Part shown: positions 1,927-62,693 of the stretch, in pieces
How positions within the stretch are numbered: the first letter of the stretch is position 1
Layout: every line of letters begins with the position of its first letter
From: an uncultured virus (IMG/VR IMGVR_UViG_3300047094_001104)
Taxonomy: Duplodnaviria; Heunggongvirae; Uroviricota; Caudoviricetes
Direction: 5' to 3' (one strand)
DNA length: 64,000 nt
Virus record (IMG/VR): IMGVR_UViG_3300047094_001104
Program-made: the position numbers and the translations under genes
Notes under the pieces: generated by a model
Databases searched by the model: none
What the model was told of the DNA's origin: nothing
Seen by the model: only the letters and a program-made list of their open reading frames with translations

Positions 1927-2576
1927 ACTACGAGAATATAATCGTCCATGACCTTGAAACGACTGGTGTGGACACCAGCACGGCACAAATTGTACAGATC
2001 GGTGCTATCTGCGTCGACGCCAGAAGACTTGAGATTATTGAAGGCAGCGAATTTGACGTCCTTATTAAGCCTTTGTATGGAGAAGAGTGTGCTAAAGCAG
2101 GTCTGCAAGAATTGACTGACGGAGCTATTAATATCCACAAAAAGGGCCACGCTTTATTAGCAGAGAAGGGCGTAACCCTAGAAACTGGGCTATCTAACTT
2201 TGTTTCCTATGTGAACACTCATAACTACGGGAAGACTAAGTGGAAAAGTCCAATCCCCGCTGGCTACAATATCAATGGGTATGATACCCCAATCCTGAAA
2301 AGAGATTTGGCAAGAACTGGACTATCTAGCCCATTCCACCCATCTATCTCAATCGACGTACTCCAATTAATGTGGATGTTCTTCGAAAATGATAAGAACG
2401 TAACCCGCCTATCCGCCGACTCACTCATTAGAAAGCACATGGGATGGAAAGACAAGGGAGAATCCCACGACGCTCTCGGGGACGTAATCATGACAGCGGA
2501 AGTCCTCATTAAATCAATGCGACTAATCCGCAAAGCCGTAGGTACTGTCAAGTTCGAAAATTGTTTCGCCCTCTAG
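1923..2576 (+). CDS. DEDDh 3'-5' exonuclease (DnaQ/epsilon-like)
   Basis: ExoI HDLETTG, ExoII GYNINGYD, ExoIII HDALGD. Confidence 0.9.
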   Translation: MNYENIIVHDLETTGVDTSTAQIVQIGAICVDARRLEIIEGSEFDVLIKPLYGEECAKAGLQELTDGAINIHKKGHALLAEKGVTLETGLSNFVSYVNTHNYGKTKWKSPIPAGYNINGYDTPILKRDLARTGLSSPFHPSISIDVLQLMWMFFENDKNVTRLSADSLIRKHMGWKDKGESHDALGDVIMTAEVLIKSMRLIRKAVGTVKFENCFAL

Positions 2577-2593
2577 TACCAGACGGAGTCTCT

Positions 2594-3034
2594 ATGGATA
2601 TCCTCGAAAAATATGAAGCCCTTATAGCCGATCTTGCACACTCTCTCTATAGGAAGACCCACCTATATGACTTTAAAGACCTCTTCCAGATAGGTCTGCA
2701 ATCGGCTATAAGGCTTGAAAAAAAGTTTGACCCAGTCAGGTCGCAGAGGAGTACATTCTTTACTCTCTGCGTTCGAAGAGATATGGTCAAATTTATCAAA
2801 AAGCATAACAAAGCTTTTACCAATACAATCCTCCCAAGTGGGATTGGCTCAAGCGATGAGCTTCAGCTCTGGGAATCTCTACCTGATCTCTGCCCCGAAG
2901 ATGCAGAGATGGTCAGGATGCTCTCAGAAGGCCACAGTAAAAGAGAAGTGGCTAGACGACTACAGCTACCACTGAAAGAAGTAAAAAATCGGCTAATCAA
3001 GGTTGGGGAGTTAATATGCTCAAAAGAGTGCTAG
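2594..3034 (+). CDS. Small sigma70-family-like transcription factor
   Basis: Region 2-like DLFQIG..KKFDPVR..TFFT and C-terminal HTH (GHSKREVARRLQL); GGAG SD before ATG 2594. Confidence 0.75.
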   Translation: MDILEKYEALIADLAHSLYRKTHLYDFKDLFQIGLQSAIRLEKKFDPVRSQRSTFFTLCVRRDMVKFIKKHNKAFTNTILPSGIGSSDELQLWESLPDLCPEDAEMVRMLSEGHSKREVARRLQLPLKEVKNRLIKVGELICSKEC

Positions 3035-4668
3035 TTGGATCTGAAGCTTCTTATCTGAATACTGGGTACGCTTCTTACGGTCGTGAGCTTATTAGGCGGC
3101 TTATCGCTACCGGCAAGTATGAAGTAGCCGAGATCTCCTGCTACGGATCTGCCGATGACGAAAGACGTAGGGAAATTCCTTGGAAGAACTACCCAATGGC
3201 TCCCTCTAAGGGCGATTCTGACGAGGTAAAGCAGATATATGCCTCTAATCCGGCCAACCAATTTGGGGCATGGAGATTCGAGAGGGCCTGCCTAGATTTT
3301 AAGCCAGACTGCCTAATTATGCAGAAAGATCCATGGATGGATTCTTGGGTGAAGCATTCGCCATTTAGACCATTCTTCTCTTGGTCTTGGGCCAGTACGG
3401 TGGACTCAGCCCCGCAGAATCCAGAATGGATTAATCAATTTGCCGATGCTGACTACTTCTACACTCTCTCAGAGTGGGCCGAGGGGGTCATCAAGGAGCA
3501 GGCTGGCGATTCAGTAAACCTAGTTGGTTCTGTGACGATGTGTGCTGCTGACGAGTTCAAGCCAGTCCCTAACAAGGCGGCACATAGGCTCTCTATGGGT
3601 CTAGATCCCGATTGGAAAATTATTGGGACCGTCATGAGGAATCAGCGAAGAAAGCTCTTCCCCGAACTCCTAGAGGCCTTCGCTCTTTATCTAGCCACTA
3701 CCGGAGATGAAAAGACTTATCTCTATTGCCATACGTCATACCCAGACAATGGTTGGGACCTTCCACAATTGATGATGAAGTACGGTATATCATCTCGGGT
3801 CCTATTCAGCTATGCCTGCGAAGAATGCGGCAAATTATCAATCAGCAAATTTAGCGATACGATCAAGCAATGCAAGGGCTGCAAAAAGTATGCAGCAAAG
3901 CTATCTAGTGTAAGTAATGGTGCTACGACCGCTGAGTTGGCCAAAATCTATAACCTGTTTGACTTATACATCCAATATTCAAACTCAGAGGGAATGGGCA
4001 TAGGCCAGCTTGAGGCGGCTGCTTGTGGAGTACCAGTTATGTCTACTGACTATTCCGCAATGGAATCCATCGTCCGTAAAATTGGCGGATTCCCAATTCC
4101 ACTCAGGGCAAAAGTCCTAGAGCTTGAAACTGGGTGCTATCGAGCAATTCCAGAGATAGACGAGGTTGTCTCCTATTGGAAGATGTTTTTCTCTTTACCG
4201 GAGAGTGATAGGGCGGCGATATCTGAGAAGACTTTGTCTGAGTACTCTCGCAACTTCAATTGGGACGAAGTAGTCGGAAAGTGGATGGTTTCACTCGACC
4301 AGTCTCCAAAGGGGGCTTGGGATAAACCATTTAGACAAATCAAGATCCCGGATGACAAAATCCCGAATTTCACCAACAATAAGGATTTTCTTGACTGGGC
4401 TATTTCTTCCTATTTGCCCCATTCTAATCTGATTAACTCATATGAGGCTAACTGCCTACTTAGGGATCTGAACTTCAAATCCTATAAACCCAACCCATGT
4501 GGTTTCTTCTATTCGGAGAACTCTTACTTTAATAGGGTTCCTTTTGTAGATTTCAGCAGAGACCACGTTATCAAAATGTTCAAGGGCAAGGCTGAGACAT
4601 TCAATTTCTGGGAAAGCGTGAGATGTGGCAAGAGGAAACTACAATCGGAGGACTGGCTCAATGATTAG
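3016..4668 (+). CDS. GT-B glycosyltransferase (GT4-like) with CxxC..CxxC insert
   Basis: NTGYASYGRE N-terminus, VMRNQRRK, and EX7E motif SEGMGIGQLEAAACGVPV. Confidence 0.88.
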   Translation: MLKRVLVGSEASYLNTGYASYGRELIRRLIATGKYEVAEISCYGSADDERRREIPWKNYPMAPSKGDSDEVKQIYASNPANQFGAWRFERACLDFKPDCLIMQKDPWMDSWVKHSPFRPFFSWSWASTVDSAPQNPEWINQFADADYFYTLSEWAEGVIKEQAGDSVNLVGSVTMCAADEFKPVPNKAAHRLSMGLDPDWKIIGTVMRNQRRKLFPELLEAFALYLATTGDEKTYLYCHTSYPDNGWDLPQLMMKYGISSRVLFSYACEECGKLSISKFSDTIKQCKGCKKYAAKLSSVSNGATTAELAKIYNLFDLYIQYSNSEGMGIGQLEAAACGVPVMSTDYSAMESIVRKIGGFPIPLRAKVLELETGCYRAIPEIDEVVSYWKMFFSLPESDRAAISEKTLSEYSRNFNWDEVVGKWMVSLDQSPKGAWDKPFRQIKIPDDKIPNFTNNKDFLDWAISSYLPHSNLINSYEANCLLRDLNFKSYKPNPCGFFYSENSYFNRVPFVDFSRDHVIKMFKGKAETFNFWESVRCGKRKLQSEDWLND

Positions 4669-5374
4669 TACAACTTGTAAAGATTGTGTCTTTAAAGAAA
4701 TGCATGGTAAGGTTCAGACTGGATGCAAACTACTTATTCTTGAGAGATTCAGAGATGCCGGAGAAGAACTATCTAGATACCAAGACGAAGAGTCTACCTT
4801 CTACAAGGTGGATCGCATCTGTATGTGGCGAAGGTCTGAGCCAACCGAGGATATCGAAAAAGATGTCTATATCAAATCTAACATTGTGGTAATGCATGAT
4901 GAAGGTGACGATCTGGACCAAACCCTAGAAGATATCTATAATCTTGACACTCCCAAGCCTCCGAGGGTTATAGTATGTCATACAACCAAAAATTTGCTTG
5001 AGGGTTACGACAAATGGTCTAAGAAATTTGGCCCACAAAGATTCTCCTGTATCATGTTGGTTGAATCTCTATATAGCGGCTCTGGATGCGATGAAGCGTT
5101 TAAGAGATCGAAAAATGGCTGGATCTTTTTCATCAAATCTGGCGATAGAGTAGATAAAGATATGCTGAATGCTCTAAACTACTCTGTGAACTACAAAATG
5201 AGTAAGCATTTAGCGACTACCGGAATTATTAGTTATATGGCCGTTGCCTATAAATTACTCAAAGGACAAATGGGAAATATCCACGAGACATTGCTCGAAA
5301 TAAATGGGGCTACAAAAGACTGGAAAGAAATCTATGAAGATTATCGGCTATACATTTCGGGACAAAGCTCCTAA
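4661..5374 (+). CDS. Hypothetical protein: Cys-rich N-terminus plus degenerate GT-A-like region
   Basis: CKDC..C..C N-terminus; NIVVMH..LDQTLEDI and GWIFFIKSGD resemble GT2 strands; lies in the glycosyltransferase operon. Confidence 0.45.
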   Translation: MISTTCKDCVFKEMHGKVQTGCKLLILERFRDAGEELSRYQDEESTFYKVDRICMWRRSEPTEDIEKDVYIKSNIVVMHDEGDDLDQTLEDIYNLDTPKPPRVIVCHTTKNLLEGYDKWSKKFGPQRFSCIMLVESLYSGSGCDEAFKRSKNGWIFFIKSGDRVDKDMLNALNYSVNYKMSKHLATTGIISYMAVAYKLLKGQMGNIHETLLEINGATKDWKEIYEDYRLYISGQSS

Positions 5375-5702
5375 GACTAGTCCATTTGTCGACGAGGTCG
5401 TTATTCTCAAAGAGTATAGCGAGCTACAGGGCGACTATGCGATAGACATAACTCTGGGAGAATTAGCAGAAGACCCAAGACCTTGGCTCAAAGATGCAGC
5501 CGCCTATTATGGCGACTATTTCGACCAGTATGGTACTTACTCTCTGCACAGCATGTTCCCGTCAATAAGGACAACTTATCCCGGAATGATTTATAAGACA
5601 TCTCTGCTGGTGGAATGTAAAACCAAAAACCCGCTAGAGGAGATCTGTAAGAATAATACCATTTCCTATATTCCTCGCCCAATGTTTAAGATTGTAATAT
5701 GA
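5334..5702 (+). CDS. Hypothetical protein (possible GT-A fragment)
   Basis: Translationally coupled ORF in the operon; AAAYYGDYF resembles GT2 'VYSD' strands. Confidence 0.4.
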   Translation: MKIIGYTFRDKAPKTSPFVDEVVILKEYSELQGDYAIDITLGELAEDPRPWLKDAAAYYGDYFDQYGTYSLHSMFPSIRTTYPGMIYKTSLLVECKTKNPLEEICKNNTISYIPRPMFKIVI

Positions 5703-6346
5703 GCACCTATATATTGCTTTCTGCTGGGGCAGGAAGGTCTATGCAGACTAGAGGGGCTAAAGCCCTATTAGAGTATAATGGACTTACTGTGCTAGACCAT
5801 CAGGTCAAAACTATACAGAGGTTTGACAAGAAGGCAGACATTCTTGTCGTAACTGGGGTTGGTCATGACAGGATCGTCAAACACATCAGTAAAAGAGAGT
5901 ATGACATTCGTGTTCTATTCAACTATAACTACAAGCTAACTAGCCAGACCGAGAGTCTCAGGCTAGCCCTAAATGCAATAAGGCATGACGCAGTCTATAT
6001 CATTCATGGAGACATGATTTTCAATGAGGCGAGTCTGTGTTGCTCGAATAGGTCATCTCTGGTGCTGTCGTCAAATGATGACAAGAAAAGTGTCGGAGTC
6101 GCATATTCAGATGGAATGGTTATCCATTTGTCCTATGGCCTTCCAGAGAAGTGGGGCCAAATAGCCTATATCTGCAAAAAGGACTTTCAGATCGCTAAGA
6201 GGACGATAAACTCGTTCAGAAACAACAAGATGACTTTTGAGTACATCAATATGCTCTTAAAAGAGATTACGATGTCTATTGTCTATGATGGTGTTAAAAC
6301 ATTGGAGATAAATAAAGACTATGAAAACGCTAGTGATAACATCTAA
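5699..6346 (+). CDS. Sugar/phosphocholine nucleotidyltransferase (NTP_transferase, LicC/MobA-like)
   Basis: ILLSAGAGRSM..GAKALL, VVTG, FNYNY, IIHGDMIF. Confidence 0.85.
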   Translation: MSTYILLSAGAGRSMQTRGAKALLEYNGLTVLDHQVKTIQRFDKKADILVVTGVGHDRIVKHISKREYDIRVLFNYNYKLTSQTESLRLALNAIRHDAVYIIHGDMIFNEASLCCSNRSSLVLSSNDDKKSVGVAYSDGMVIHLSYGLPEKWGQIAYICKKDFQIAKRTINSFRNNKMTFEYINMLLKEITMSIVYDGVKTLEINKDYENASDNI

Positions 6347-7010
6347 AAATGACTTTAGAATTCATACCCTGATGGCTCCACTAAAGAGTCTTATGGAAGT
6401 CGGATTCATGGCCAAGTACGATGGCCAATCAGTTTCTGATTTCGGTGCAGACTTGGTATTCACTGATGAGCCAGAAAAGACGCCCGGAGCATATGACCTC
6501 AGCAAAATTGGCTCTATCCGCCCGTTCATCAATCTAATATCATATACTGAGCCACACAATACGCCAAAATATGAGTCTGATATCTCATACATCGGTCCAA
6601 TATCCGATATGGACTCTTCATTGTTGGACCTATATCGACTCGGATACAATGTGAGGAACTTCTTTGGGTCAGCTTCTCTTTTACCGTGCTATTCTGGCTC
6701 TATCCAGATTGGCGAGTGTTGGTCCATCTATAAGACGGCTAAAGTCTCGCCGATTCCTAGATCAGATATTGGATATAGAGAGCTGGACATAATCGCCGGA
6801 GATGGGAACCCCCTGAAGTTTTCGACAAAAGAAGAGTTCATATCTGAAGCGATCAAGGGGATTAAGGGCAAAAAATTTAAGCATACTATGTCCAAGACCA
6901 GCATTTTTGCTGGTCATACAAATTTTGACAGACTTTCTCAGATCGTTCATGATCTAGGGTTTTCTGCAGTGGCCAAGAAGATACTAGAGGACAAAAAATG
7001 CTTGGTTTAA
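6321..7010 (+). CDS. CgeB-like (Glyco_trans_1_2) glycosyltransferase-like protein
   Basis: YESDISYIG, YKTAKVS, RELDIIAGDG and C-terminal HTNFDR resemble the CgeB-family DxxFxG..SKI..RxFE..HTYxHR pattern. Confidence 0.55.
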   Translation: MKTLVITSKNDFRIHTLMAPLKSLMEVGFMAKYDGQSVSDFGADLVFTDEPEKTPGAYDLSKIGSIRPFINLISYTEPHNTPKYESDISYIGPISDMDSSLLDLYRLGYNVRNFFGSASLLPCYSGSIQIGECWSIYKTAKVSPIPRSDIGYRELDIIAGDGNPLKFSTKEEFISEAIKGIKGKKFKHTMSKTSIFAGHTNFDRLSQIVHDLGFSAVAKKILEDKKCLV

Positions 7011-7435
7011 TAGTGGCCGATACTAACTTTTCAGAACGATCAATAATGGCGTTTGAGGAACTTAACAAGAAGGCTAGGGGGCTAGATGAGGCTTCTTTGT
7101 TCTACGTGAACCTAAGCTCTCAGGTTCTGCCAGCCGACTTCTCCATCATGAATATCACAGAGATCGCCAATGCATATGATTGGACTCTAGTAGCGACTTG
7201 CCTAATGTCAGCCGATATACTCAAAATGGCGACAATAAGGGCCAAAAAAGCGTATTATATGATGGATCTGGCCTTTTTAATGAAACCGTATGACTTTGTG
7301 AAGACATATGAGACCTTGTCTAAGCTGAAGCTCATCGTAAGGTCAGAACATCACCAAAGGTTCATCAAGAACCTATTCAATCTTGACTCTATTGTTTTAC
7401 CGTTTGAGTTGGATAAGATATGCAATACGCTATAG
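6998..7435 (+). CDS. Hypothetical protein (GT-B N-terminal-like fragment)
   Basis: LVATC..KAYYMMDL..LIVRSEHH pattern; coupled in the operon. Confidence 0.45.
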   Translation: MLGLIVADTNFSERSIMAFEELNKKARGLDEASLFYVNLSSQVLPADFSIMNITEIANAYDWTLVATCLMSADILKMATIRAKKAYYMMDLAFLMKPYDFVKTYETLSKLKLIVRSEHHQRFIKNLFNLDSIVLPFELDKICNTL

Positions 7436-8226
7436 TTAATTCTGCGAAACTCCGTTTCTCCTATTTGGATGAAAAGAAGTCTGTTCCCACCATCGCTGTC
7501 GAAATGGGCACTAATGAAACCAAGATTAGGCGAGCCCTAAAGTTCTTGGGGGTTCCAATCCGCTCTTATGCGGAAGCTCAGAGTGTAGCCATTTCTCAGG
7601 GGATCGCTAAGCATCCCACCAAGGGGAAAAAGCTCTCCAAGGAAACAATCAATAACATTTCAGCCCAAAGATCAAAAGCTTGGCTTGATTTGCCGGAAGA
7701 TGAAAAGCAGAAATTCCGCGACCTCAAAAAGGAACAGTGGAATAATATGACCGAGTCAGCTAAAGAGAATCTGAGATCAGCAGCCTACGCAGCGATCCGA
7801 GAATCAGCCGAAATTGGGTCTAAAACTGAGAGGTATGTATCTGCCGCTCTTGAAGAAGAGGGCTATGGCGTAATCATTCATGCCAGAAATCTCATACAAA
7901 GTCAGGCTCTTGAGGTTGACATGTTCATCCCTGACCTTAAAACTGCTGTAGAGATTGACGGCCCGTCACATTTCGAGCCGGTTTGGGGACCTGATCGGCT
8001 GAGAAAGCAACAGTCTGCTGACACTGCTAAGCAGGGATTGTTGATGAATAATGGGTACGCCCTGATAAGGGTAAAACAATTGGATAGGTCGATGAGTGTT
8101 AAAAGAATGAAGGATGTTTATGAGTTAATCCTGTCTGAACTTAGGAAGATTGAAGTTGAATTTCCTCCACTCGGCAAAAGGATGATCGAGTTGGAAATTA
8201 AAGATGGTGTTACTAGGAAGATTTAG
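7420..8226 (+). CDS. Putative homing endonuclease: HTH/NUMOD3-like plus DUF559/Vsr-like nuclease
   Basis: KGKKLSKETINNIS (NUMOD3-like); EVDMFIPDLKTAVEIDGPSH..D..KQ..L..GY..IRV. Confidence 0.75.
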   Translation: MQYAIVNSAKLRFSYLDEKKSVPTIAVEMGTNETKIRRALKFLGVPIRSYAEAQSVAISQGIAKHPTKGKKLSKETINNISAQRSKAWLDLPEDEKQKFRDLKKEQWNNMTESAKENLRSAAYAAIRESAEIGSKTERYVSAALEEEGYGVIIHARNLIQSQALEVDMFIPDLKTAVEIDGPSHFEPVWGPDRLRKQQSADTAKQGLLMNNGYALIRVKQLDRSMSVKRMKDVYELILSELRKIEVEFPPLGKRMIELEIKDGVTRKI

Positions 8227-9590: not shown

Positions 9591-9618
9591 GAAGGGTGGC
9601 GAAAGCCACCCCTTCTCG
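9591..9618 (+). terminator. GAAA-tetraloop hairpin (terminator or processing site)
   Basis: GGGTGGC-GAAA-GCCACCC after the SSB gene; weak U-tract. Confidence 0.6.
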
Positions 9619-10701
9619 TTGGATGAGCCTATGCTAGATTTCCTTATAGTCGGGGCAGGATGTTTCGGGGCGACGTTTGCTAGAGTTGTGAAAGACCATG
9701 GCAAAAGTTGTTTGGTCATCGATAAGCGGGAGCATATAGCAGGAAATTGTTTCACCACTAAGCAGAACGGGATTGATGTCCATGAATATGGTGCCCATAT
9801 ATTTCATACCTCGAACGAAGAAGTATGGAACTTTGTTAATCGCTTCAGCAAATTTAATAATTACAGGCACACAGTTAAAGTTTCAAATTTTGGCAAGATC
9901 TACTCATTTCCCATAAACTTAATGACGCTATATCAGATGTGGGGAGTCCAAACTCCCGAGTCGGCCCACCATGCTCTTCAGCAAAGACAAATTCCATCCG
10001 TGGAAGATGATCTGGAATCCTATATCCTATCTCAAATAGGATCTGAACTCTATGAAACATTCGTACGAGATTACACGTTGAAACAATGGGGAACCGATCC
10101 TAAAAATTTGCCAAAATCCATCATCAAGCGTCTTCCAATAAGACTATCATTTGATGACAGGTATTTCTTGGATACATATCAGGGCATCCCTGTTGACGGC
10201 TACACATCTCTTTTTACTGAAATGCTTTCTGGAATTCGGGTCGAGACTGGGGTCGATTACTTCGCCAATAAGGGCCGACTAGATCGATTAGCAAAGAGGG
10301 TTGTTTATACTGGGCCAATTGATCAATATTTTGACTATGATTTTGGCAGACTAGGCTGGAGGAGTCTACGATTTGAGACTGAACTCGTAAGAAAGCCAGA
10401 CTATCAGGGGTGTAGTGTGATGAACTATACTGATAGAACTCCATTTACGCGGATATGTGAGCACAAGCATTTCACAGGAGTGCTTACAGATACGACAGTG
10501 ATAACAAGAGAATTTCCGTCAGATTCTGGAGACGAATTCTACCCGATTCGAACCAAGCATGACATAATCACCTATAATAGGTACAAGGCACTTACTTCTT
10601 TGGGAAGTACCATATTCGGTGGCCGATTAGGCCACTACAAATACATAGACATGCATCAAGCGATTGGTGCAGCTTTAAAGGCGGCGTATGAAGTATTATA
10701 G
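9619..10701 (+). CDS. glf: UDP-galactopyranose mutase
   Basis: IVGAGCFG FAD motif, HEYGAHIFHT, YTLKQWG, YQGIPVDGY, FTRICEHKHF, GRLGHYKYIDMH. Confidence 0.95.
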   Translation: MDEPMLDFLIVGAGCFGATFARVVKDHGKSCLVIDKREHIAGNCFTTKQNGIDVHEYGAHIFHTSNEEVWNFVNRFSKFNNYRHTVKVSNFGKIYSFPINLMTLYQMWGVQTPESAHHALQQRQIPSVEDDLESYILSQIGSELYETFVRDYTLKQWGTDPKNLPKSIIKRLPIRLSFDDRYFLDTYQGIPVDGYTSLFTEMLSGIRVETGVDYFANKGRLDRLAKRVVYTGPIDQYFDYDFGRLGWRSLRFETELVRKPDYQGCSVMNYTDRTPFTRICEHKHFTGVLTDTTVITREFPSDSGDEFYPIRTKHDIITYNRYKALTSLGSTIFGGRLGHYKYIDMHQAIGAALKAAYEVL

Positions 10702-10915
10702 ACTAGTGTTTAAAAAAGACAATTTAGGAGTATCGTTTTCTGAAATTTCAGAGCAGACGATAGATGATGCCACTTTTTCTAAAATGAATTGGGATAAGCC
10801 GATTATCAGACAATTTGATGGCAGATATCACCACTTTATCTCCTTGCATAGAGATTATTTAGAGTGCATTTTACTTGGAGTCGGCGTGTATCAGGAGTTG
10901 TCAAGTGGGATTTGA
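10688..10915 (+). CDS. Hypothetical protein
   Basis: 75-aa ORF overlapping both neighbours. Confidence 0.55.
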   Translation: MKYYRLVFKKDNLGVSFSEISEQTIDDATFSKMNWDKPIIRQFDGRYHHFISLHRDYLECILLGVGVYQELSSGI

Positions 10916-11387
10916 AATACAGGCAGATGATGTCCTATTCCTATATGCCCTTATAAGGGCATTTAAGATAAAGACAGTTCTAGAACTTGGCGGTCTGGAT
11001 GGCTTTTCTGCTAGATGCTTTTGTTGGGCAGGAGCAAAAGTTTGGAGCGTTGATGTGAACTCATTTTCAATCAACCATCCAGACCATATTATGATTTCCA
11101 AAAATATATCTGATATAAGAATTGAGGATATAGGGTCATCCATTGAGATGATATTCTTTGATGCTCACTGCTACGAAGAGCAGACTAAATGTCTTGAGCT
11201 TCTAAAAAGAGAGTCAGTTATTACAGATAGCACGATGTTGGTATTTCACGATACGGCAGGACACCATCAGATATCTGAAAAATTGATGGTTAATGACTTG
11301 ATATCTTCTGGCTACAGTTGCTTACATGTCCCGACAGAAAAGGGGCTAAGTATTTGTAGAAAAACTATTCCGCTGGAGATAGTGTGA
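10875..11387 (+). CDS. Class I SAM-dependent methyltransferase (Methyltransf_24-like)
   Basis: VLELGGLDGFS, WSVD, IFFDAHCY, LVFHDT. Confidence 0.85.
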   Translation: MESACIRSCQVGFEIQADDVLFLYALIRAFKIKTVLELGGLDGFSARCFCWAGAKVWSVDVNSFSINHPDHIMISKNISDIRIEDIGSSIEMIFFDAHCYEEQTKCLELLKRESVITDSTMLVFHDTAGHHQISEKLMVNDLISSGYSCLHVPTEKGLSICRKTIPLEIV

Positions 11388-12325
11388 TGCAAGAATGCAT
11401 ATGCTCACAGCCCGGATGGTGTAGTCGCCATTTTGAAACTAAAGATAGGAAAAAATGGCTAATGTGCCTAAAGAATGAAGGACATAGGCATAGCCTAGAT
11501 CTTAAATTTGGTACACCATATCACATGATGACCCAAGATCAAATCTCTTGTGTACACAGGTACGTAGAAGAAGAAAAGCATCTTCGTAAATTCATTCATG
11601 ATTATGACGAGCGGATCTTAGACGAATGTAAGATCCTACTTCTCGGACATCGCCCCGATCAATATGACGGGGAAGATAGAAATTATCTGTATCTTACTTT
11701 ACTGCAGGACATGGACCTAGGGACCTATAGACAATATCAAAACAATTGTTTTGCAGAATCTAGAGCTTTTTTAGCAGATATGCCAGAAGCAGAGTATGTC
11801 GGAGTTGTTACAGCTTCTTGGAATAGAAAATTTGGACCCAATAAAATCGATAATTTTCATAACTGGGATAACACCAAAATCTTGTTCAATAGTGGAGACA
11901 AAAACATAGTTTTGACGGCAGAAAGATCGTTATTTAAACATAACGACATTTTTCTGCTATTCAACAAGGGCTGCATAAGAGACTTTGAGAAATTCGCTAT
12001 CTCTCTTACCGGTGAAGTATGCAATTTTGGTCTTTGGTCCAATCAGATAATTTGTCACAGGAGTGTGTATCTCAGATTGCAAGAATTCTATAGGAGGGTA
12101 TTCCCGCTGGTGGTCCAAAAAATATTCTCGTACAACTTACGATCTGTAAAATGTAGTGGTATGCACAGTGACCAGAACCTGATCTACTCTGGCCCCGAAG
12201 TGGGTTTCAATAATAGAAAAGAAGGACTTTTCTTTGAATTTCTAACCAATCTATGGTTCGCATCTCAGAAGGATCTGATGATTCTACCTAATGCGGTCTG
12301 CAATACTGATTGGTACTTCCATTAG
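11384..12325 (+). CDS. Cys/His-motif N-terminus fused to a DUF4422/GT111-like glycosyltransferase
   Basis: AESRAF, EYVGVVTASWNRKF, NQIICHRSVY and RKEGLFFEFLTNLWF parallel the DUF4422 pattern (CEL..YVG..YRRYF..NMFI..GFLSERLL.VW). Confidence 0.5.
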   Translation: MMQECICSQPGWCSRHFETKDRKKWLMCLKNEGHRHSLDLKFGTPYHMMTQDQISCVHRYVEEEKHLRKFIHDYDERILDECKILLLGHRPDQYDGEDRNYLYLTLLQDMDLGTYRQYQNNCFAESRAFLADMPEAEYVGVVTASWNRKFGPNKIDNFHNWDNTKILFNSGDKNIVLTAERSLFKHNDIFLLFNKGCIRDFEKFAISLTGEVCNFGLWSNQIICHRSVYLRLQEFYRRVFPLVVQKIFSYNLRSVKCSGMHSDQNLIYSGPEVGFNNRKEGLFFEFLTNLWFASQKDLMILPNAVCNTDWYFH

Positions 12326-12333
12326 TCCTTCCA

Positions 12334-12801
12334 TTAGTCCTTCCAGTAGCCAGCAGGACATGAATTAGCGGCCCAACTAGCTTTAGTGGGAGTATGACAT
12401 CCACATTTCGTACATCTGTCTCCAGACAGAAAAGGGCACGTACTGCAAACCTTCAGCCTCTCCTGCTTCGTTTCTTCTGATACATGGCTAAAGCCGCTTT
12501 TAGCATGTTGTTTTATCGCCGATCCTAGGTTTTTAGCTTGCTGCCACAGTGACGGCATACTATGGGGCTTCTCCAATGTCGGTGCGACTTGCGGAGACTC
12601 AATCGCTGGAATCGTAGTAGGCGATTCTTTTTTATTGCACTCAACAAATCTCTGGCCCGGACCACGACACTCTTCCCATCTGTTGAAATAGGCTGGACTA
12701 TTTTGGCATAGCTTGTGCTGATGTGGAGATTTTTCGATCCCGTGCCTATTGCAAAAACCGGCAAGTGGACACGAGCAATCGGTCTTTTTGTTTTCTTCCA
12801 T
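12334..12801 (-). CDS. Cys-rich protein with DUF6171-like C-terminal domain
   Basis: ERLKVCSTCPF..RCTKCGC..KA....SCPAGYW; N-terminal CSCPLAGFCNRH motif. Confidence 0.7.
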   Translation of the reverse strand: MEENKKTDCSCPLAGFCNRHGIEKSPHQHKLCQNSPAYFNRWEECRGPGQRFVECNKKESPTTIPAIESPQVAPTLEKPHSMPSLWQQAKNLGSAIKQHAKSGFSHVSEETKQERLKVCSTCPFLSGDRCTKCGCHTPTKASWAANSCPAGYWKD

Positions 12802-12818: not shown

Positions 12819-15800
12819 TTACATTGCCTCTGTAATTGTCACATGAATTACTGAAGAATCACACTGAACATATCTAGTTGCATCTAGGCATCCACAATTA
12901 TTGAGATAATCTTCGGTGTGGTCTCCCCTGCTGTCTGATGCCGAGTTGAATATCATGCATTCGTCAATATTAAGCTTCCATGAGTTTCCAAGTACGCTAC
13001 ATAGGGTTCGACTTGGACAACATCCTGTCTCGATAGGATATGGAATGTATAAATAATCACCGCACTTATACGCTGCTACGCTTATATTCCCATCACTGAT
13101 GAACGGCTGACCACCAGATTCACAGTAAGTATATGCTCCAGCTATTGGTTGTGCCCTATCGCATGCGGAGCATCCAACTGGCTCGATAGTCTCTCCTATT
13201 TCGTAAGCGACCCCTCCTGACGATGTCATATATCCGTAATATGGAGCTGAATCTCTTACCGTTGCAGTATTTGCAGATCCACTAGCTGGGCCAGCACAAC
13301 ATGTGTCACATGGTGTAGTGCAATAATCCACTATTCCTGTCCCAACGACTTCAGCATATATACCTCTGGATTTTGCTAGCGTTACACAGACCGACTGTGG
13401 AGCTAGTTCGTAATATCCAAGAATCCCTCCACAAGTGCTATCATTGCAGGTACAGGGAGGAGGTTTTATAAAGCCCCCGCAAGCAACACTTGGCACTCCA
13501 TCTAGAACATATTCAAGTAAAGTTGGCGGATCTTGTAATAGGTCTCTCCTCCTCAAAACCGACTCGCAACATTCTACGTCCACCAATATTTTGAAGGGAT
13601 TAAATAAGCAATTATCTTGTTCTGAATAGGCAGATTTATCAAGATAATATCCCATACTGCTAAAGTTGTTAGCCAAAAAGGTCTTTGGGCTTCCGACACT
13701 AGCATCGATAGAAGACTGAGAATGTAGACTCATAATATGACAAGCATCGGAAACTATAGAACAACTTTTAGTATCTGATGTATATCTAAATAATGATGTA
13801 TTCACACCTATTAACGGAAGATAATCTTCAACAGTGATTATTACGTCATCTAATCCAACATTTTCAGTTATAGAAGTTTTAGCTGTTTCGTCACAAGCAT
13901 TGATAAATCTCGTATTTTCTGCTTCTAGTATTATGTCTGGCATTTCGTTAGTTTCAAAATCTTGATATCCAGTGTACCAGTCTCCTAAAACCAATGATGA
14001 ATTAGATGTACAAAGTTGTAGAGCCCCAAATCTAGATACTTTAGTACCTACAACATATTTCCTTCTTGGAAAGAACATTTTATTACAATAAAAGTCACTT
14101 CCACACTCTGCATGATCTTGTAAGCAACTATGGAATTTATTAGTCCAGTCTACCCCGAGTCTATTTGCTGGTGTGAAATATAAGCCAGTATCAAAAATAG
14201 CAGTACTACTATAGACTACTCCGGTCCCGCAAGGATTAGGAGGTGGACTGTTGTCTGTTTGATCTCCTAGATCAATGGCTGGAAAATATTTGTTACTAGG
14301 CACACCTGACTCATAGAATAGATTAAAATAATTCCACAGTCTGTCTTCGCCAGATGCTGGGGGTTCTCCTAAAATAAAATCTTGATTTGAATGGAGACCT
14401 TCTGAATAATGAGCATTGCAGACTCCCCTATATGACACAATGCCAGTTCCAGACATTTCTGGCTCAGAATAATATGCAGGAGTAACAGAGTCAGATGGGG
14501 TACAGAATGGGATCTCTACGCAAACAGTCCCAGTCCCAACTGGGTATCGATATGATCCTATCTGTTTAGGTTTACAGGATGATGCGGGCGTACCACCTAC
14601 TATATGTTGCCAATTTCTAGGTCTGGTATGGTACTCTCTGGCCACGTATAGGTTAAAGACATCTCCTGTACACTCTATCTTGTTAACCACCATAACTTCT
14701 GGAAAACAGGATCTTAGATTAACCGATACTCCACTATTCACATCACCAGACCAAGGGATTGGGTCTCCGCACGATCCAGCTTGAGCTGACTGATCATGAC
14801 TACAATCTCCATCACAAGTAGATGGTATTAGTGTTGTGCATACTAAATCGCCCTGACGTTCGCGATGTGGTTCTTCAAACTCATAGTAAACGCCAGTCGC
14901 TAGCATGTTGGGGCCAGTATGCCATGAACAAGCCGAATCAGCAATCAGATCTACTGGAGTAGACGCAAAATCAATTTCAGTATTCGAATTTATATAGACT
15001 GGGCCAATTGATCCATATTCTCCGGAATAACTTACGGCTACCACCAGTCCAGTTGTCTCTATCCCGTAAAAATCACAGACTGTGCCAGTTCCATATACTA
15101 AAGTTTTTGCACCAGATATATCTATAAGGGTTTTTCTCATTAACTGTAAATTACAATTGCAAACACATGGATTTTGATATTCCGGCGGTATAAACGTAAT
15201 TGTGTCACACTCATCACATACCACAGTTGGACAATCACAGGTTTCTACTGTGGGATTAGAGCATGCTGCACACGGAAAAAATGCTTGCTGGCCATAACTA
15301 TTTGTACCGGCACATCCATATTCGCTAAAATATGTATTACACCCAAAAACCTTATTAGAGGCGAGACTTGACAAAACATCTGCTGGAGAATTTAAAACTC
15401 CTAACGACTTTAAGCTATCAATAAGGGGCTCAGGAATGATTTCAAAAATTTGCTCATTTCCACTCGGGACCAAAACAAAGCTTGCTTTCAGTTGTAGATC
15501 AGACGCAGCCGAAGGGAAATGATGGCCGCAGCCAGCATTTTCATACATTACATCTAAAACATTACTAGCCCCAGTAATTTGAGATAGGGTTAAGTAATTC
15601 CTTATAATCCCAGTAGCGTCTGGAGGTATTAAATGATCGTGAGCCCCCTCGCATGCTAACTTAAATGATGCATAGACAGAAAATCCGGGAGACCTAACCG
15701 TTGGAGCAGGCGTGAAATAATCATTCAGTCTATCCTGAGCACAATCTGGCACATTGATGTATGAGTTATTTATATTCCAAGTTGTCCATCCTGCAGAGAT

Positions 15801-18407
15801 ATTGCTTCCTCTGAGCTTTATATTCATAAGATCAAATTGATTTGCTATGCACGAACACGTATTGCCAACGTACGAGCTTGTCAAATCTATTCCACTAACT
15901 AGTCCGTCACATGGTACACCAAATCCAGTCTCACATGAGTATGTTGGATCAAAGTTGGTCCCCTTATAAGTGCAATGATTCCATCCATACTTTTCTCCTC
16001 TAGCATGAGAGAAACTGGTATTTAGCCCAGCGGTTTCTAATATTAGGTCAGTTTGTGCAGCCTCAATGCTTCCGCATCCGACACAATCATCTGTATGATC
16101 AATCTCCACCAAGAATGGAACTTTGTCTGTCGGCCATCCACTGGCTCTGGTTGAGCAAAGATCAAAATCTAAGTATGGATACTCAGGAGGGGGTCCATCA
16201 CACGCCAGTCCATAAGCAATAGCTGGCTTGGGTCGGAAGTACGGCGATACTACTCTTCCCTGACTATCAGAAACTCCCCAGAATGGATAATTTCCTGATG
16301 CAGAGAACCCTCCTACCTGTCCACTTTCTAGTGTATATGGATTATTGAATTGCCAATACATGGGTTGAGGATCTGTGGGAGCTACTCCAGTATTCCTATA
16401 ATCCCCGGCTTGTACTAAGTTCGCAAATGCAGAGGTGATTACCTCTCTACGATCATGATATTCATTTCCGCAAAGATTACGAATGAAACCATAGGTAGTA
16501 TATGGCTGCTTGGGAAGACAAGCATAATCTGATGACGGGATAGGGCACTCACTTAAGCTTCCCCCTTCACATTCTGACGCCCATTTATATTGCCACAATA
16601 TGTCATTACATCCGTAATCCTCGGGATACAGGTCAAACTTTGGGAATGTTGGAAAGGTAACAGGAGATGGAACTTCGACAAAAATAGGATCTCTGAGACC
16701 CGGTGGAACATCGTCTCCACAGCCGCAGACGTCTTGTGGTTTGGTCTTAGGCCCCCACACGTTTGAGAGATTGATGTACATATAAATCTCTTGACCAGAC
16801 AACCCCTTTCTTAAGTCTTCTACCCCCGTAGGGGCAAAATATGGGTGTCCTGATTCACTATATGTGCAACCATCATCGAAATTACAGCCACGATAAACAA
16901 TGGCTAATCTACTAATCATATTAGTAATTTGTTTGTATGGCCCATCACATTCTTGAAATCTTTCGGAATACTGAGTAATACAATCTGGGTATACCGATAA
17001 TGAGGCCTTCTTACTGTAGCAAGTCCCATTATTTCCTTGGGTTTTGTTATATTTTCCATCTACCCGAACGGACGTATCATATTTGTCTATGTCAAAGAAT
17101 GCCCCATAGTATGGGTGCTCTTGTGAGAATACCGGATAACCACTCTCAAGAAGTACACCAGTCTCAGTCACATCTGGAATGGTTTTGTTGACCCTAAACG
17201 AGTTGGCGGGATTGATCTGGCTAGTGGTCCCCAACCCGTATGTATATCTATTTTCTGGGAACCTATTGGCCTGAAGCTTGTTTTTATTATTATTGAAAAT
17301 TCGGCCAAGATCTGAGTGATAGTTTTTGACACTATTGGGCCTTTTGGTGTCATTCGATATGTTGTGGGCTGCTCCACCGCAACACGTATTCGGGTCTGAC
17401 GTTCCAAGGGCCGACCAGCGGTGCCCAGTTTCTAATACCTCGCCACTACCCAACGTGCCAACAACCTTACAGTCGGTTACCCCACTTGAGTGAGTCACTC
17501 CAAAGACTCTGTATCCCCCATCTAGATATGAGCCATATACACCAAGAGCCATACCATCGGCTATGCCCGAAGCCACTCCACTATTATAGATTAAACCTAA
17601 ATGAAGGAAGTCTTCGATCCCACCACTTCGGTAAACATAAGCTTCTCCTTTATATAAAGACGGAATTGATCCATCTTGGACGCAGCCCCGCTCTCCCGAT
17701 ACACGGATCTGGAATGGGTCATATTCTAGGCCAAAATTATCACCTCTCAGAATCTCTTGTTTCGGAGAACCATCACACTCCGAAACTACGCTAGAGTCCA
17801 TATAGATATTGTCATAGCATACGTCTTGTGATATGTATCTCCAAGCCCCAGTCTTGTTCTTAAAGATGGTGTCCGTAGTTGAGATTTTGGTCCCATAGCC
17901 GAAATTTTCTGGGAACTTCTTGTATACCTTGGTAGGATCTGATTGGTCGCATGATTCAAGATCTGAAGTGGCCGTACCGGCCCTATCAATCAGGTAAACC
18001 TCAGCCCCACCACGCTCTATGTCATCCCTAGTGGCACCGTTATAGTGTTTCAGCCCAGAAAATTCATCGGCAGTAGGATCGTCTGGGTCGTAAACGGACC
18101 TATATAGTACGTCTGGTCGTTGTTCGTCTCTAAATGGACCCTGAACTGGCCCTAGAGTACCGCATTGCTTGGTGGCGAAGTGTAGCTCATCATACCCATC
18201 GAAGAAGTCGTAGTGGCCATTTGAGAAGATGGCTGTGCCACTTGTTAATACGTTGCCACTTCCATCATTGAAGCCCCAGAAGGTAGGATTGGCAATAACT
18301 CTGATCTTGAGCTGCTTCGGTAAAGAGATAGTGCCGTCCTGACCACAGAACTGGTCATTGATGCAGTTTCTGCTACATTCGTAGCACCCAGATAGCATAT
18401 CGGCCAT
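12819..18407 (-). CDS. Very large Cys-rich putative tail tip/fibre protein (1862 aa)
   Basis: Last large gene of the tail module; about 90 Cys by manual count; AGGA SD upstream. Confidence 0.7.
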   Translation of the reverse strand: MADMLSGCYECSRNCINDQFCGQDGTISLPKQLKIRVIANPTFWGFNDGSGNVLTSGTAIFSNGHYDFFDGYDELHFATKQCGTLGPVQGPFRDEQRPDVLYRSVYDPDDPTADEFSGLKHYNGATRDDIERGGAEVYLIDRAGTATSDLESCDQSDPTKVYKKFPENFGYGTKISTTDTIFKNKTGAWRYISQDVCYDNIYMDSSVVSECDGSPKQEILRGDNFGLEYDPFQIRVSGERGCVQDGSIPSLYKGEAYVYRSGGIEDFLHLGLIYNSGVASGIADGMALGVYGSYLDGGYRVFGVTHSSGVTDCKVVGTLGSGEVLETGHRWSALGTSDPNTCCGGAAHNISNDTKRPNSVKNYHSDLGRIFNNNKNKLQANRFPENRYTYGLGTTSQINPANSFRVNKTIPDVTETGVLLESGYPVFSQEHPYYGAFFDIDKYDTSVRVDGKYNKTQGNNGTCYSKKASLSVYPDCITQYSERFQECDGPYKQITNMISRLAIVYRGCNFDDGCTYSESGHPYFAPTGVEDLRKGLSGQEIYMYINLSNVWGPKTKPQDVCGCGDDVPPGLRDPIFVEVPSPVTFPTFPKFDLYPEDYGCNDILWQYKWASECEGGSLSECPIPSSDYACLPKQPYTTYGFIRNLCGNEYHDRREVITSAFANLVQAGDYRNTGVAPTDPQPMYWQFNNPYTLESGQVGGFSASGNYPFWGVSDSQGRVVSPYFRPKPAIAYGLACDGPPPEYPYLDFDLCSTRASGWPTDKVPFLVEIDHTDDCVGCGSIEAAQTDLILETAGLNTSFSHARGEKYGWNHCTYKGTNFDPTYSCETGFGVPCDGLVSGIDLTSSYVGNTCSCIANQFDLMNIKLRGSNISAGWTTWNINNSYINVPDCAQDRLNDYFTPAPTVRSPGFSVYASFKLACEGAHDHLIPPDATGIIRNYLTLSQITGASNVLDVMYENAGCGHHFPSAASDLQLKASFVLVPSGNEQIFEIIPEPLIDSLKSLGVLNSPADVLSSLASNKVFGCNTYFSEYGCAGTNSYGQQAFFPCAACSNPTVETCDCPTVVCDECDTITFIPPEYQNPCVCNCNLQLMRKTLIDISGAKTLVYGTGTVCDFYGIETTGLVVAVSYSGEYGSIGPVYINSNTEIDFASTPVDLIADSACSWHTGPNMLATGVYYEFEEPHRERQGDLVCTTLIPSTCDGDCSHDQSAQAGSCGDPIPWSGDVNSGVSVNLRSCFPEVMVVNKIECTGDVFNLYVAREYHTRPRNWQHIVGGTPASSCKPKQIGSYRYPVGTGTVCVEIPFCTPSDSVTPAYYSEPEMSGTGIVSYRGVCNAHYSEGLHSNQDFILGEPPASGEDRLWNYFNLFYESGVPSNKYFPAIDLGDQTDNSPPPNPCGTGVVYSSTAIFDTGLYFTPANRLGVDWTNKFHSCLQDHAECGSDFYCNKMFFPRRKYVVGTKVSRFGALQLCTSNSSLVLGDWYTGYQDFETNEMPDIILEAENTRFINACDETAKTSITENVGLDDVIITVEDYLPLIGVNTSLFRYTSDTKSCSIVSDACHIMSLHSQSSIDASVGSPKTFLANNFSSMGYYLDKSAYSEQDNCLFNPFKILVDVECCESVLRRRDLLQDPPTLLEYVLDGVPSVACGGFIKPPPCTCNDSTCGGILGYYELAPQSVCVTLAKSRGIYAEVVGTGIVDYCTTPCDTCCAGPASGSANTATVRDSAPYYGYMTSSGGVAYEIGETIEPVGCSACDRAQPIAGAYTYCESGGQPFISDGNISVAAYKCGDYLYIPYPIETGCCPSRTLCSVLGNSWKLNIDECMIFNSASDSRGDHTEDYLNNCGCLDATRYVQCDSSVIHVTITEAM

Positions 18408-50189: not shown

Positions 50190-51785
50190 TTACATAAATT
50201 TCTTGGAAAACTTGAGCTGACCACAATCCCACAACTTATAGAGCTTATGATCATAGCCAGTATTAGATGGGAATTTCATGCGATTAAACAAATTCTTACC
50301 ATCTGTCCATTTAAAGCTCTTAAAAGCCTTGCCCCTTACGAAGCCAAGCCCTTCCATATAGTCTCCAGTCCCATATCTCAAATCCACAAAGGAAATAAGC
50401 CCTTCGGGCTTAAACACCTCAGTAAAAAAGGAGAGGATCTTACTCAAACCGCCCACAATCGAATGGCCAACCTTGTTACAAAATCTGGAAATCTCCCAAT
50501 CGTTTCCCTTGACTCGACGAAGCCTCATTAGGCTTACTAACTCAGTACCATCATAAAGGCCGATGCATTCGCCCCGCCCCTGTCCCATGAGATGGTTGTC
50601 CTCTAAAAATTTGGCACCTTCTTTTTTACCGACTTGGCCAATTTTGAGCTTGCGAGCGAATAGGCGGGTACTCTTGCCAAGTTTGTTGAGGATGATAGAT
50701 TTAATTATATGGAACTTTTGAGTGACTTCATCTTCACCAAAGAATAGCGGTACGAATCCTTGCTCAATATAGAACTCTCTCTTCTTAACGTGATAGTCGT
50801 CCTTTTTGTGTAGTTCACTATGCCAATAAGTACCATTGAGTTCGATGGCCAAATTACCTATTGTGAAATCGGCATAATATCTGCCAATTTTTACCTGCTT
50901 GCTATACTCTATCCCAGCTTGCTTCAGCCAATCCTCGACTATTGCTTCTAGGGAACTAATTCGTGGGGTCATCTTAACAGCCAATTCCCACCCGTTCTCT
51001 TTTACTAGAACGCTAAATCGGGACCTAGAAAAGCCAGTTTCTTCTGCCCATTCTCTTTTGGTTCTGCCCTTATGAATAGCTAATATTCCTTTATCTATCT
51101 TGGTCTGTCTGCATTTCTTGATCCTATCCTTTCTCACCTCTGGCAACTTCATTAGATTATCTACGCCATACTTCTCTAGCATAGTTTGTCTAGACTTCTC
51201 TTTTACCGATTCTAGCTGGAACACATTGTCGACCCCAGTGACCTCCTTTGTTTTCTTGATACAATCTTCAGACCCGAGATATGTCTCTTTACCAAATCTC
51301 TCTTTGCACGTATTCTTCCTTTTCTCCTTGAACTCCTCAACCGAAGAAGCATTCTCAACACCATACTTCTTTAAGTTAGTCTCTTTAATCTTGTCTCTTA
51401 CCCCGTCTATATCCATTATCTTATCGACACCATATCTCTCCATCATGGTGTCTTTAACTTTATCCTTAATGGCCTGAGATTGTGATGGTCTTTCAACTCC
51501 ATACCTATCCAGATTTGTCTTAGTTAATTTATCCTTGGTAGACTTTAGCTCAAAAACATTTCTTACCCCAAGTTTGATAAAGTTAATATCGCCTATTTTT
51601 ATCATCCTACAGCTTCTACATGCGTCTTTATCCAGCATTGCATTTGACTTTACTCTTCGGCAGTGTGCATTGGTATACTCATTACTACAGTAATCACACT
51701 TAAGCCAGAGCATATTTTTTGAGTGCTTGCTAAGTGAAGTTTGTGAATAGCCAAATTCTTTAATTGTTTTGTCATCGAGCAGCAT
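50190..51785 (-). CDS. Putative homing endonuclease: K-rich YG repeats, DUF559/Hef-like nuclease, GNAT/Mom-like C-terminus
   Basis: Repeats like KETNLKKYGVEN; YADFTIGNLAIELNGTYWH; WEISRFC..GGLSKIL..SFVDLRYGTG..LGF..WDCG. Confidence 0.7.
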   Translation of the reverse strand: MLLDDKTIKEFGYSQTSLSKHSKNMLWLKCDYCSNEYTNAHCRRVKSNAMLDKDACRSCRMIKIGDINFIKLGVRNVFELKSTKDKLTKTNLDRYGVERPSQSQAIKDKVKDTMMERYGVDKIMDIDGVRDKIKETNLKKYGVENASSVEEFKEKRKNTCKERFGKETYLGSEDCIKKTKEVTGVDNVFQLESVKEKSRQTMLEKYGVDNLMKLPEVRKDRIKKCRQTKIDKGILAIHKGRTKREWAEETGFSRSRFSVLVKENGWELAVKMTPRISSLEAIVEDWLKQAGIEYSKQVKIGRYYADFTIGNLAIELNGTYWHSELHKKDDYHVKKREFYIEQGFVPLFFGEDEVTQKFHIIKSIILNKLGKSTRLFARKLKIGQVGKKEGAKFLEDNHLMGQGRGECIGLYDGTELVSLMRLRRVKGNDWEISRFCNKVGHSIVGGLSKILSFFTEVFKPEGLISFVDLRYGTGDYMEGLGFVRGKAFKSFKWTDGKNLFNRMKFPSNTGYDHKLYKLWDCGQLKFSKKFM

Positions 51786-62267: not shown

Positions 62268-62693
62268 GTGGCCATGAAACTTTGGTTGTCTGGTGTTGCT
62301 GGTGCTGGCAAGTATGCTGAGGTTGATCCTGAAGATTATGTGCGGCTCAACCGATACAAGTGGTTTTTGAGGAACACATATGCGGTGGCCGTAGTGGACG
62401 GCTGTACAGTCCGCATGCACCGAGTTGTTATGAACGAGGATGATCCTAGGATCGTCATTGACCATATTAATAGGGATCGGCTCGACAACCGCGTAAGCAA
62501 CTTACGTAGGATGTCACCCATCGAAAACGCAAATAATCGTGTCGATAATGTGAGAGTTCTAGCCTTTGGCGAAGAACTCACTCTCGCAGAATGGGCTAGA
62601 GATCCAAGATGTGGGGTGTCTTACGATACGCTTCATAAGCGTATCTATCGTGGATATCCAGCCGAAGTAGCGATCTTAGCAAAGGAAGAATAA
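62268..62693 (+). CDS. HNH homing endonuclease (HNH_3 type)
   Basis: VRMHRVVM..IDHINRDRLDNRVSNLR; C-terminal TLAEWA..RIYRG. Confidence 0.88.
   Translation: MAMKLWLSGVAGAGKYAEVDPEDYVRLNRYKWFLRNTYAVAVVDGCTVRMHRVVMNEDDPRIVIDHINRDRLDNRVSNLRRMSPIENANNRVDNVRVLAFGEELTLAEWARDPRCGVSYDTLHKRIYRGYPAEVAILAKEE

Follow-up and report, generated by a model that had tools for sequence, protein, structure and literature searches.

A predicted galactofuranose-addition cassette with a cysteine-tagged, GT111-like glycosyltransferase in a large uncultured tailed phage

The 64,000-nucleotide stretch analyzed here (the window) belongs to the uncultured tailed virus IMGVR_UViG_3300047094_001104 from IMG/VR and represents most of a 74.6-kb phage contig. 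It harbors a small sugar cassette in which glf, the gene of a uridine diphosphate (UDP)-galactopyranose mutase, is accompanied by a gene for a 313-amino-acid (aa) protein. The body of this protein resembles glycosyltransferases of family GT111 (Pfam domain DUF4422), and its N-terminus carries a short cysteine module that recurs in a 155-aa protein encoded on the opposite strand. All open reading frames (ORFs) named in an initial annotation of the window were found where it had placed them, and its description of a cassette that converges on the end of the tail module is accurate: the 313-aa and 155-aa genes are convergent, and their stop codons are 8 bp apart. The locus comprises the following features.

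9619..10701, plus strand: Glf, UDP-galactopyranose mutase (Pfam GLF and NAD_binding_8, phrog_9677)
10688..10915, plus strand: u75, a conserved 75-aa ORF that overlaps both neighbors (homologs in relatives)
10875..11387, plus strand: probable small class I S-adenosylmethionine (SAM)-dependent (O-)methyltransferase, 170 aa (sub-threshold Pfam and PDB matches)
11384..12325, plus strand: 313-aa protein with a Cys module and a divergent DUF4422/GT111-like GT-A body, predicted galactofuranosyltransferase
11393..11491, plus strand: N-terminal Cys module of the transferase, residues 4-36, CxCx3GWCxRH...K...C (module hidden Markov model (HMM), E 2.8e-11)
11624..12298, plus strand: GT-A catalytic body, residues 81-305 of the transferase
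12334..12801, minus strand: gene of the 155-aa protein
12682..12783, minus strand: Cys module of the 155-aa protein (module HMM, E 9.3e-18)
12819..18407, minus strand: 1862-aa Cys-rich protein, by context the last large gene of the tail block behind the tape measure

The identity of Glf as a UDP-galactopyranose mutase is certain from its sequence, as the initial annotation had it. The protein matches Pfam GLF (PF03275) over the full profile (positions 2-203 of 203, E 1.4e-70, 237.5 bits at a cut-off of 26.3), takes on an N-terminal Rossmann domain (NAD_binding_8, E 1.2e-19), and matches phrog_9677 with E 1.8e-125. The following u75 was missed in the initial annotation and is a real gene. Homologs with 50-72% identity are present in 19 of the 20 loci of the 155-aa family, and in relatives the core early/sugar cluster ends with u75; scans of Pfam and PHROG returned no match to it. 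The third gene, claimed as a SAM methyltransferase, is present, and its identity is plausible but weak because its Pfam matches stay below the cut-offs and its PDB matches are nonsignificant. A VLELGG..G motif is found in the sequence, and Methyltransf_3 is the better of two Pfam matches (E 0.005, 16.5 bits versus 22). Weighing against the assignment are the still lower score for Methyltransf_24 (E 0.05, 14.9 bits versus 26.3), the E values of 0.6-0.9 for the best three PDB sequence matches, all of which are O-methyltransferases, and the lack of similarity to the Methyltransf_24 part of a fused transferase relative (P0128). The gene is confined to the close lineage of the window (L021-L025).

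The body of the 313-aa protein is described here as a divergent DUF4422/GT111-like GT-A glycosyltransferase, predicted to transfer galactofuranose (Galf). The initial annotation had deduced a DUF4422-like body from motifs, which agrees with the fold and the motifs and fails at the Pfam threshold. In the fold comparison of 11384-12325 with GT111 that it had proposed, the body takes a GT-A-type fold and WbbM (6u4b) is the top match. The four blocks AESRAF, EYVGV..WNRKF, NQII, and GLFFEFLTNLWF are conserved in the family and have counterparts in true DUF4422 proteins, and blocks in the N-terminal part can be matched to DUF4422 by eye (LGH with HK, N..AESR with N..FCELT, YVG..TASWN.K with Y.G..HYRR). 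A profile of 69 family sequences has 6u4b_A as its sole match among 177,635 PDB sequences (E 0.01), and hhalign against four true DUF4422 proteins from bacterial genomes yields a probability of 77% and E 2e-5 over 62 C-terminal columns. DUF4422 is carried by 28 of the 30 nearest named ESM-Atlas clusters (score 0.96), most of which are viral. Sub-threshold DUF4422 matches occur in five of 13 family members (best E 0.0026), and a paralog in L028 reaches E 0.0011 and 19.3 bits at a cut-off of 25.

Domain fusions and gene neighborhoods are consistent with this assignment. Six of 129 representatives, scanned out of 212 transferase homologs found, are fused to GT8, the partner domain in WbbM, at E <= 1e-5, with additional cases at E <= 0.01; GT4, GT2, and Methyltransf_24 are further fusion partners among the relatives. 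The proposal that donor synthesis and transferase sit together holds beyond the window, as glf lies at most 700 bp from a transferase homolog in 15 of 19 viral loci, several of these 15 being near-duplicates. No hydrophobic segment was found in the transferase, and the protein is predicted from its sequence to be soluble. The family looks virus-restricted; a tblastn search of 50,697 GenBank phage records gave no match to the transferase, and a DNA search returned only short glf matches.

Several results weigh against this picture. The window protein matches no Pfam model at E <= 0.1, DUF4422 (PF14393, 25-bit cut-off) included, none of the 129 representatives reaches DUF4422 at E <= 1e-5, and a PDB search with a 13-sequence family profile was empty. 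The hhalign alignment covers only the C-terminal half of the family, and the AlphaFold model is mediocre, with a mean predicted local distance difference test (pLDDT) score of 63 and values below 50 in the module. Four of the 19 loci lack a nearby glf (L030, L031, where the contig end cuts it, L035, and L037), and specificity for Galf would follow from the neighboring genes alone. Zinc binding and docking by the module, considered below, are likewise read from a cysteine pattern and from domain architecture. Because the Pfam threshold is missed, the protein is named GT111-like and not a member of the family.

The initial annotation had also noted that the Cys/His-containing N-termini of the transferase and of the 155-aa protein match, and we consider the homology of this module to be real on the sequence comparisons. 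It is conserved in the transferase family (P0002-P0006, P0008, and 21 more members), and C9, C11, C17, H20, K24, and C32 are invariant in the 155-aa family. As a pair, the two N-termini give a weak BLASTP match (E 0.14, 8 of 25 residues identical). The two family profiles align over the module with an hhalign probability of 65% and E 6e-5 (50 columns), and bridging sequences connect them: the 155-aa protein of the window matches a transferase homolog from L027 (E 2e-5), and the 155-aa family profile matches the N-terminus of a homolog from G006 (E 5e-6). The strict C.C...G.C pattern occurs in 48 of 3812 ORFs from the window plus the fetched loci, 47 of which fall into the two families or two other tagged enzymes. 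When counted by a strict pattern within the families, the module is carried by 27 of 161 transferase-family and 27 of 28 155-aa-family proteins.

It could be argued that two Cys-rich N-termini match by chance or that the N-terminus of the transferase is untranslated, and we regard both as very improbable. The pairwise E value speaks for coincidence, but the profile and intermediate-sequence links join the families, and just one stray pattern match is seen in ~3760 other ORFs. The public gene call comprises 266 aa, starts at residue 48, and excludes the module, as would be expected of an untranslated leader. Against this, the first 47 residues are kept in relatives that are 60-68% identical overall and the N-terminus is also conserved in distant members, a GGAGA ribosome-binding site is located 7 nt upstream of the ATG at 11387, and this ATG overlaps the stop of the preceding putative methyltransferase gene (TGATG). 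In our judgment, the N-terminus is translated. Because public predictions begin at residue 48, the module is under-reported in databases.

An HMM of the module was made from the transferase and 155-aa families, which renders it circular for these two, and was searched over the 3812 ORFs. Its matches are otherwise limited to a GT8 protein, GT8-GT111-like fusions, a 134-aa protein in L020, and a 339-aa protein in L009. The latter is a phosphoribosyltransferase (PF00156, E 1.6e-7) in the slot that is held by the transferase in the window. Comparison of the 155-aa family profile with longer proteins places the module at residues 2-6 before various enzyme bodies, namely Methyltransf_24, Methyltransf_23/11, DUF3431, MptE/Maf-like, and phosphoribosyltransferase, with one more that has a sub-threshold Erv1 match. 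Across these bodies and the GT111-like and GT8 ones, the module lies within residues 2-62. In the survey of fusion partners proposed in the initial annotation, the module is found on glycosyltransferases and other tailoring enzymes, and no tail protein among the 3812 ORFs carries it. Two tagged proteins, P0190 and P0195, were not recovered in viral contigs, and the relatives of P0193 are without the module. A metagenome relative of P0195 adjoins a DUF6171-like 135-aa protein, and neither of the two matches the module HMM.

Neither Pfam nor PHROG has a model that covers the module. It is not resolved in the AlphaFold model of either protein, and because its pLDDT in the transferase is below 50, no fold is assigned. 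The four cysteines at fixed spacing suggest a putative zinc knuckle.

The 155-aa gene is the final gene of a minus-strand structural operon. It starts 17 nt past the stop of the 1862-aa gene and thus directly follows the giant Cys-rich protein, as the initial annotation had stated. In all 16 loci that show both genes, some of them near-identical to each other, the 155-aa gene adjoins the 1862-aa gene at the latter's 3' end. The two genes share a strand in eight of these loci; in the other eight they are on opposite strands, and the 155-aa gene overlaps the end of u75 of the early/sugar cluster. The 1862-aa gene is located downstream of the tape-measure gene, and its product contains 90 Cys (4.8%) as opposed to none in the tape measure. 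The protein is 33-66% identical among relatives, and no family was found for it in Pfam or PHROG.

The C-terminal part of the 155-aa protein belongs to a different domain. Residues 107-153 match DUF6171 (PF19668) at profile positions 34-80 of 80 with 29.9 bits (cut-off 27), and the C-terminal 50 residues also match phrog_13558. Stand-alone DUF6171-like relatives are found in cyanophages and in Rhizobium, Acidovorax, and Variovorax phages. The 29 cultured-phage records match in the C-terminal part only, with the N-terminal module outside the match in all of them, and no mention of DUF6171 was found in the literature searched. In P0192 (584 aa, metagenome), a DUF6171-like domain follows C-terminally to DUF6734 (E 2e-24), and each half of the 155-aa protein is therefore also found appended to larger proteins. 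Among the cultured cyanophages, PSS2 (L051 5001-5144) and Synechococcus phage S-H38 (L050 4953-5303) have stand-alone DUF6171-like ORFs, and that of PSS2 is an unannotated stretch with a tail protein on one side and the tape measure on the other.

Between u75 and the 155-aa gene, the glf/transferase cassette forms an insert that varies among loci. Within the lineage of the window the order is Glf-u75-methyltransferase-transferase, L003 and L018 are ordered otherwise, L006 and L007 hold the transferase alone, and L009 has the phosphoribosyltransferase instead. The site is empty in 11 of 20 loci. In five more distant loci the transferase-glf pair separates deoxynucleoside monophosphate (dNMP) kinase and nuclease genes from those of DNA polymerase III and exonucleases, and in L035 and L037 a GT8 fusion is located beside the terminase. 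G002 and G003, two genomes that are 100% complete and encode tagged transferases, contain no homolog of the 155-aa protein (positive control 4/4) and none of the 1862-aa protein. Because of this absence, the tag is not tied to the 1862-aa protein in general; a link within the window's own lineage is possible. The idea of the 155-aa protein as an obligatory hub for tagged enzymes was also considered and is weakened by its absence from these two genomes. A GC-rich hairpin (GGGTGGC-GAAA-GCCACCC, 9594-9611) separates glf from the core cluster and borders the variable cassette on its left. Terminator-like hairpins around the cassette are at background level, with 3 found against 2.8 expected.

Two gene clusters face each other around this junction. 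The minus-strand structural operon contains the large terminase (phrog_2, E 3e-23) and a 2090-aa tape measure (phrog_28, E 4.5e-27), which is followed by proteins of 537, 1186, 554, and 1862 aa. The plus-strand cluster heads toward the 155-aa gene and encodes a dNMP kinase, a PD-(D/E)XK nuclease, an RNase T-like exonuclease, a sigma-70-like factor, a 550-aa GT4-type glycosyltransferase, a MobA-like nucleotidyltransferase, an HNH-like gene product, and several unknowns before it ends with Glf, the 75-aa, the 170-aa, and the 313-aa ORFs. G001, a nearly identical record in IMG/VR with 139,854 bases, extends the genome of the window; the two records of this genome, G000 and G001, are 48% and 72% complete, respectively. 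A second, larger sugar cluster lies outside the window at ~8.2-22.1 kb of G001 (L040:8242-19734, L041:328-2090). It encodes a GT4, an FkbM-type methyltransferase, two GT2, a DegT aminotransferase, two NAD epimerase/dehydratases, DUF5672, GT11, and GT17, and the phage encodes at least 10 glycan-related genes in total.

A core sugar block at 3016-7435, directly downstream of the phage sigma-70-like gene (2561-3034), is kept in all relatives. Besides the 550-aa GT4-like protein (phrog_2170) and the MobA-like nucleotidyltransferase, it encodes a 249-aa protein with a weak GT2 match (E 0.006) and unknowns of 132, 229, and 145 aa. The adjoining 268-aa HNH/homing-endonuclease-like gene (7420-8226) occupies the same position in relatives at 42-87% identity; a mobile endonuclease would not usually be so fixed in place, and the gene may have been domesticated. 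More homing-type endonucleases occur in this genome, with phrog_3339 (E 1.9e-68) within the structural operon and additional GIY-YIG genes (50190-51785 and 62693-63610 of the window; L040:141-902). In G001, DNA polymerase III alpha is divided into at least three separate ORFs with several kb between them, and the DNA ligase is broken up by intein/Hint pieces (L041:4041-5189, 6067-7725, 15122-16108; L042:13288-15904).

The explanation that we favor, and hold with somewhat better than even confidence, is that the cassette is an accessory, horizontally shuffled galactofuranose-addition set of a large tailed phage with a docking-tagged GT111-like transferase. Glf would turn host UDP-galactopyranose into UDP-galactofuranose, the soluble 313-aa GT-A transferase would place Galf on an acceptor, and the small methyltransferase would probably methylate the product. 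The cassette would be one add-on to a larger phage glycan toolkit that includes the GT4-like protein and the nucleotidyltransferase of the window and the second cluster elsewhere. The first ~35 residues of the transferase would form a separate four-cysteine, probably zinc-binding module, which may be a docking tag by which exchangeable tailoring enzymes reach a single shared partner or acceptor. The comparisons above show which genes are present, the fold and homology of the transferase, its linkage to glf, how the module is related and spread, and that the cassette varies; the Galf specificity, the zinc binding, and the docking role are what we infer in this scheme.

As for the acceptor, we consider a protein made by the phage, for instance a virion component, the most probable class, if short of an even chance; an acceptor of some other kind comes next, followed by a host envelope glycan and then by DNA. 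The initial annotation had gone further and proposed that the module targets the transferase to the tail tip. In this explanation, the transferase and the other tagged enzymes dock on the Cys-rich tail protein encoded at 12819-18407, the virion tip receives a Galf coat that is perhaps O-methylated, and the 155-aa protein is a tail-associated partner. The 155-aa gene does abut the tail protein gene, but the flipping strand of the 155-aa gene, the empty cassette sites, the five loci in which the pair sits among replication genes, the two complete genomes without either partner, and the lack of a tagged tail protein all count against targeting to the tail tip. We rate this explanation as rather unlikely and leave the tail-tip Galf coat as an open minority reading.

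Two further rivals place the sugar elsewhere. One is remodeling of the host envelope, in which the infected host's surface glycan, or a lipid-linked one, would receive Galf and, for example, superinfection would be blocked or a receptor changed. WbbM, the only characterized GT111 enzyme, builds an O-antigen galactan and a GT111 gene is coupled with glf in Kingella pamA-pamB (PMC12269835), and the GT8 and GT111-like fusions have a parallel in the two activities of WbbM. However, no transporter, flippase, or multi-span membrane protein was found with the sugar genes examined, and the transferase family looks virus-restricted, which leaves this route improbable. Hypermodification of DNA, in which UDP-Galf would glycosylate a modified base to shield the phage DNA from nucleases and the basic Cys module would bind DNA, seems more doubtful still. 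In its favor, a UDP-galactopyranose mutase of Rhizobium phage RL38J1 belongs to a proposed glycosyl-5-hydroxycytosine DNA pathway (PMC13326640), the cluster of the cassette includes a dNMP kinase and nucleases, and in five related loci the cassette lies between dNMP kinase and DNA polymerase III genes. Yet no thymidylate-synthase (TS) homolog was found in G001 or in four of five related records including the complete G002, where the window's own genome is represented by records only 48% and 72% complete. The single TS homolog (G003) is a canonical ThyA (QRSCD, FN) without the D169N signature reported in PMC13326640. Tet/JBP enzymes were not found in five records in a search without a working positive control, to which the same incompleteness applies. 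The transferase itself resembles WbbM and not the T4 alpha-/beta-glucosyltransferases or JGT-like DNA enzymes, and the GT2, GT11, GT17, DegT, and epimerase genes of the genome point to a complex glycan. Because the sugar toolkit is so large, a complex glycan on a protein appears a better fit than a simple base modification.

An extended form of the favored galactofuranose-addition scheme is put forward as a speculation with only a modest chance of being right in full. The module would be a phage-specific docking domain by which plug-and-play enzymes are recruited to one macromolecular substrate, here the 90-cysteine tail protein. With its tag and its DUF6171 domain, the 155-aa protein would be the resident adaptor or regulator, and the exchangeable set would comprise the Galf transferase, GT8, the phosphoribosyltransferase, several methyltransferases, a Maf-like transferase, and perhaps a sulfhydryl oxidase. 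If this is true, the surface chemistry of the virion would be diversified by one-gene swaps at one junction.

Phage glycosylation of DNA and, in mycobacteriophages, of virions is already known, as are GT111 Galf transferases in bacterial O-antigen synthesis. New are an apparently virus-restricted branch of GT111-like enzymes that is tightly linked to glf and an unnamed cysteine module that many tailoring enzymes share although they are unrelated. Should the module be a docking tag, it would offer a way to the targets of modification in these phages and would explain the swapping of modification chemistries at a single genomic junction. Galf is absent from mammals and antigenic, and for this reason virions that bear it would be relevant to the immune recognition of phages.

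Compared to WbbM of Klebsiella pneumoniae O2a (6u4b), the phage transferase stays below the Pfam DUF4422 threshold, and the HYRR block of true DUF4422 proteins is TASWN.K in the phage family. Phage-family fusions are reversed in domain order with GT8 first, and the phage transferase, which is viral and predicted to be soluble, carries a Cys module that is absent from WbbM. In mycobacteriophages, glycans are present on the C-termini of capsid and tail-tube subunits, as reported in PMC12619734. There, phage glycosyltransferases decorate the phage's own structural proteins. To our knowledge, no Glf, GT111 enzyme, or Cys tag takes part in mycobacteriophage virion glycosylation.

Phage DNA sugar hypermodification (RL38J1, RB69, DLP3; 5mYOX- and TS-linked glycosyltransferases) shares the placement of sugar genes near a dNMP kinase, and in RL38J1 a phage glf is likewise proposed as the UDP-Galf source of a glycosylation pathway (PMC13326640). 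In contrast to these systems, neither a TS-type hydroxylase nor a Tet/JBP enzyme was found here, the latter without a positive control, and the transferase family differs from the DNA-hypermodification glycosyltransferases reported in bioRxiv 10.1101/2023.12.21.572611. In Kingella kingae, pamA (GT111) and pamB (UDP-galactopyranose mutase) form a bacterial lipopolysaccharide locus that differs from the phage cassette in being without the Cys module and in the undefined role of PamA; what the two have in common (PMC12269835) is a single-domain GT111-type gene beside glf.

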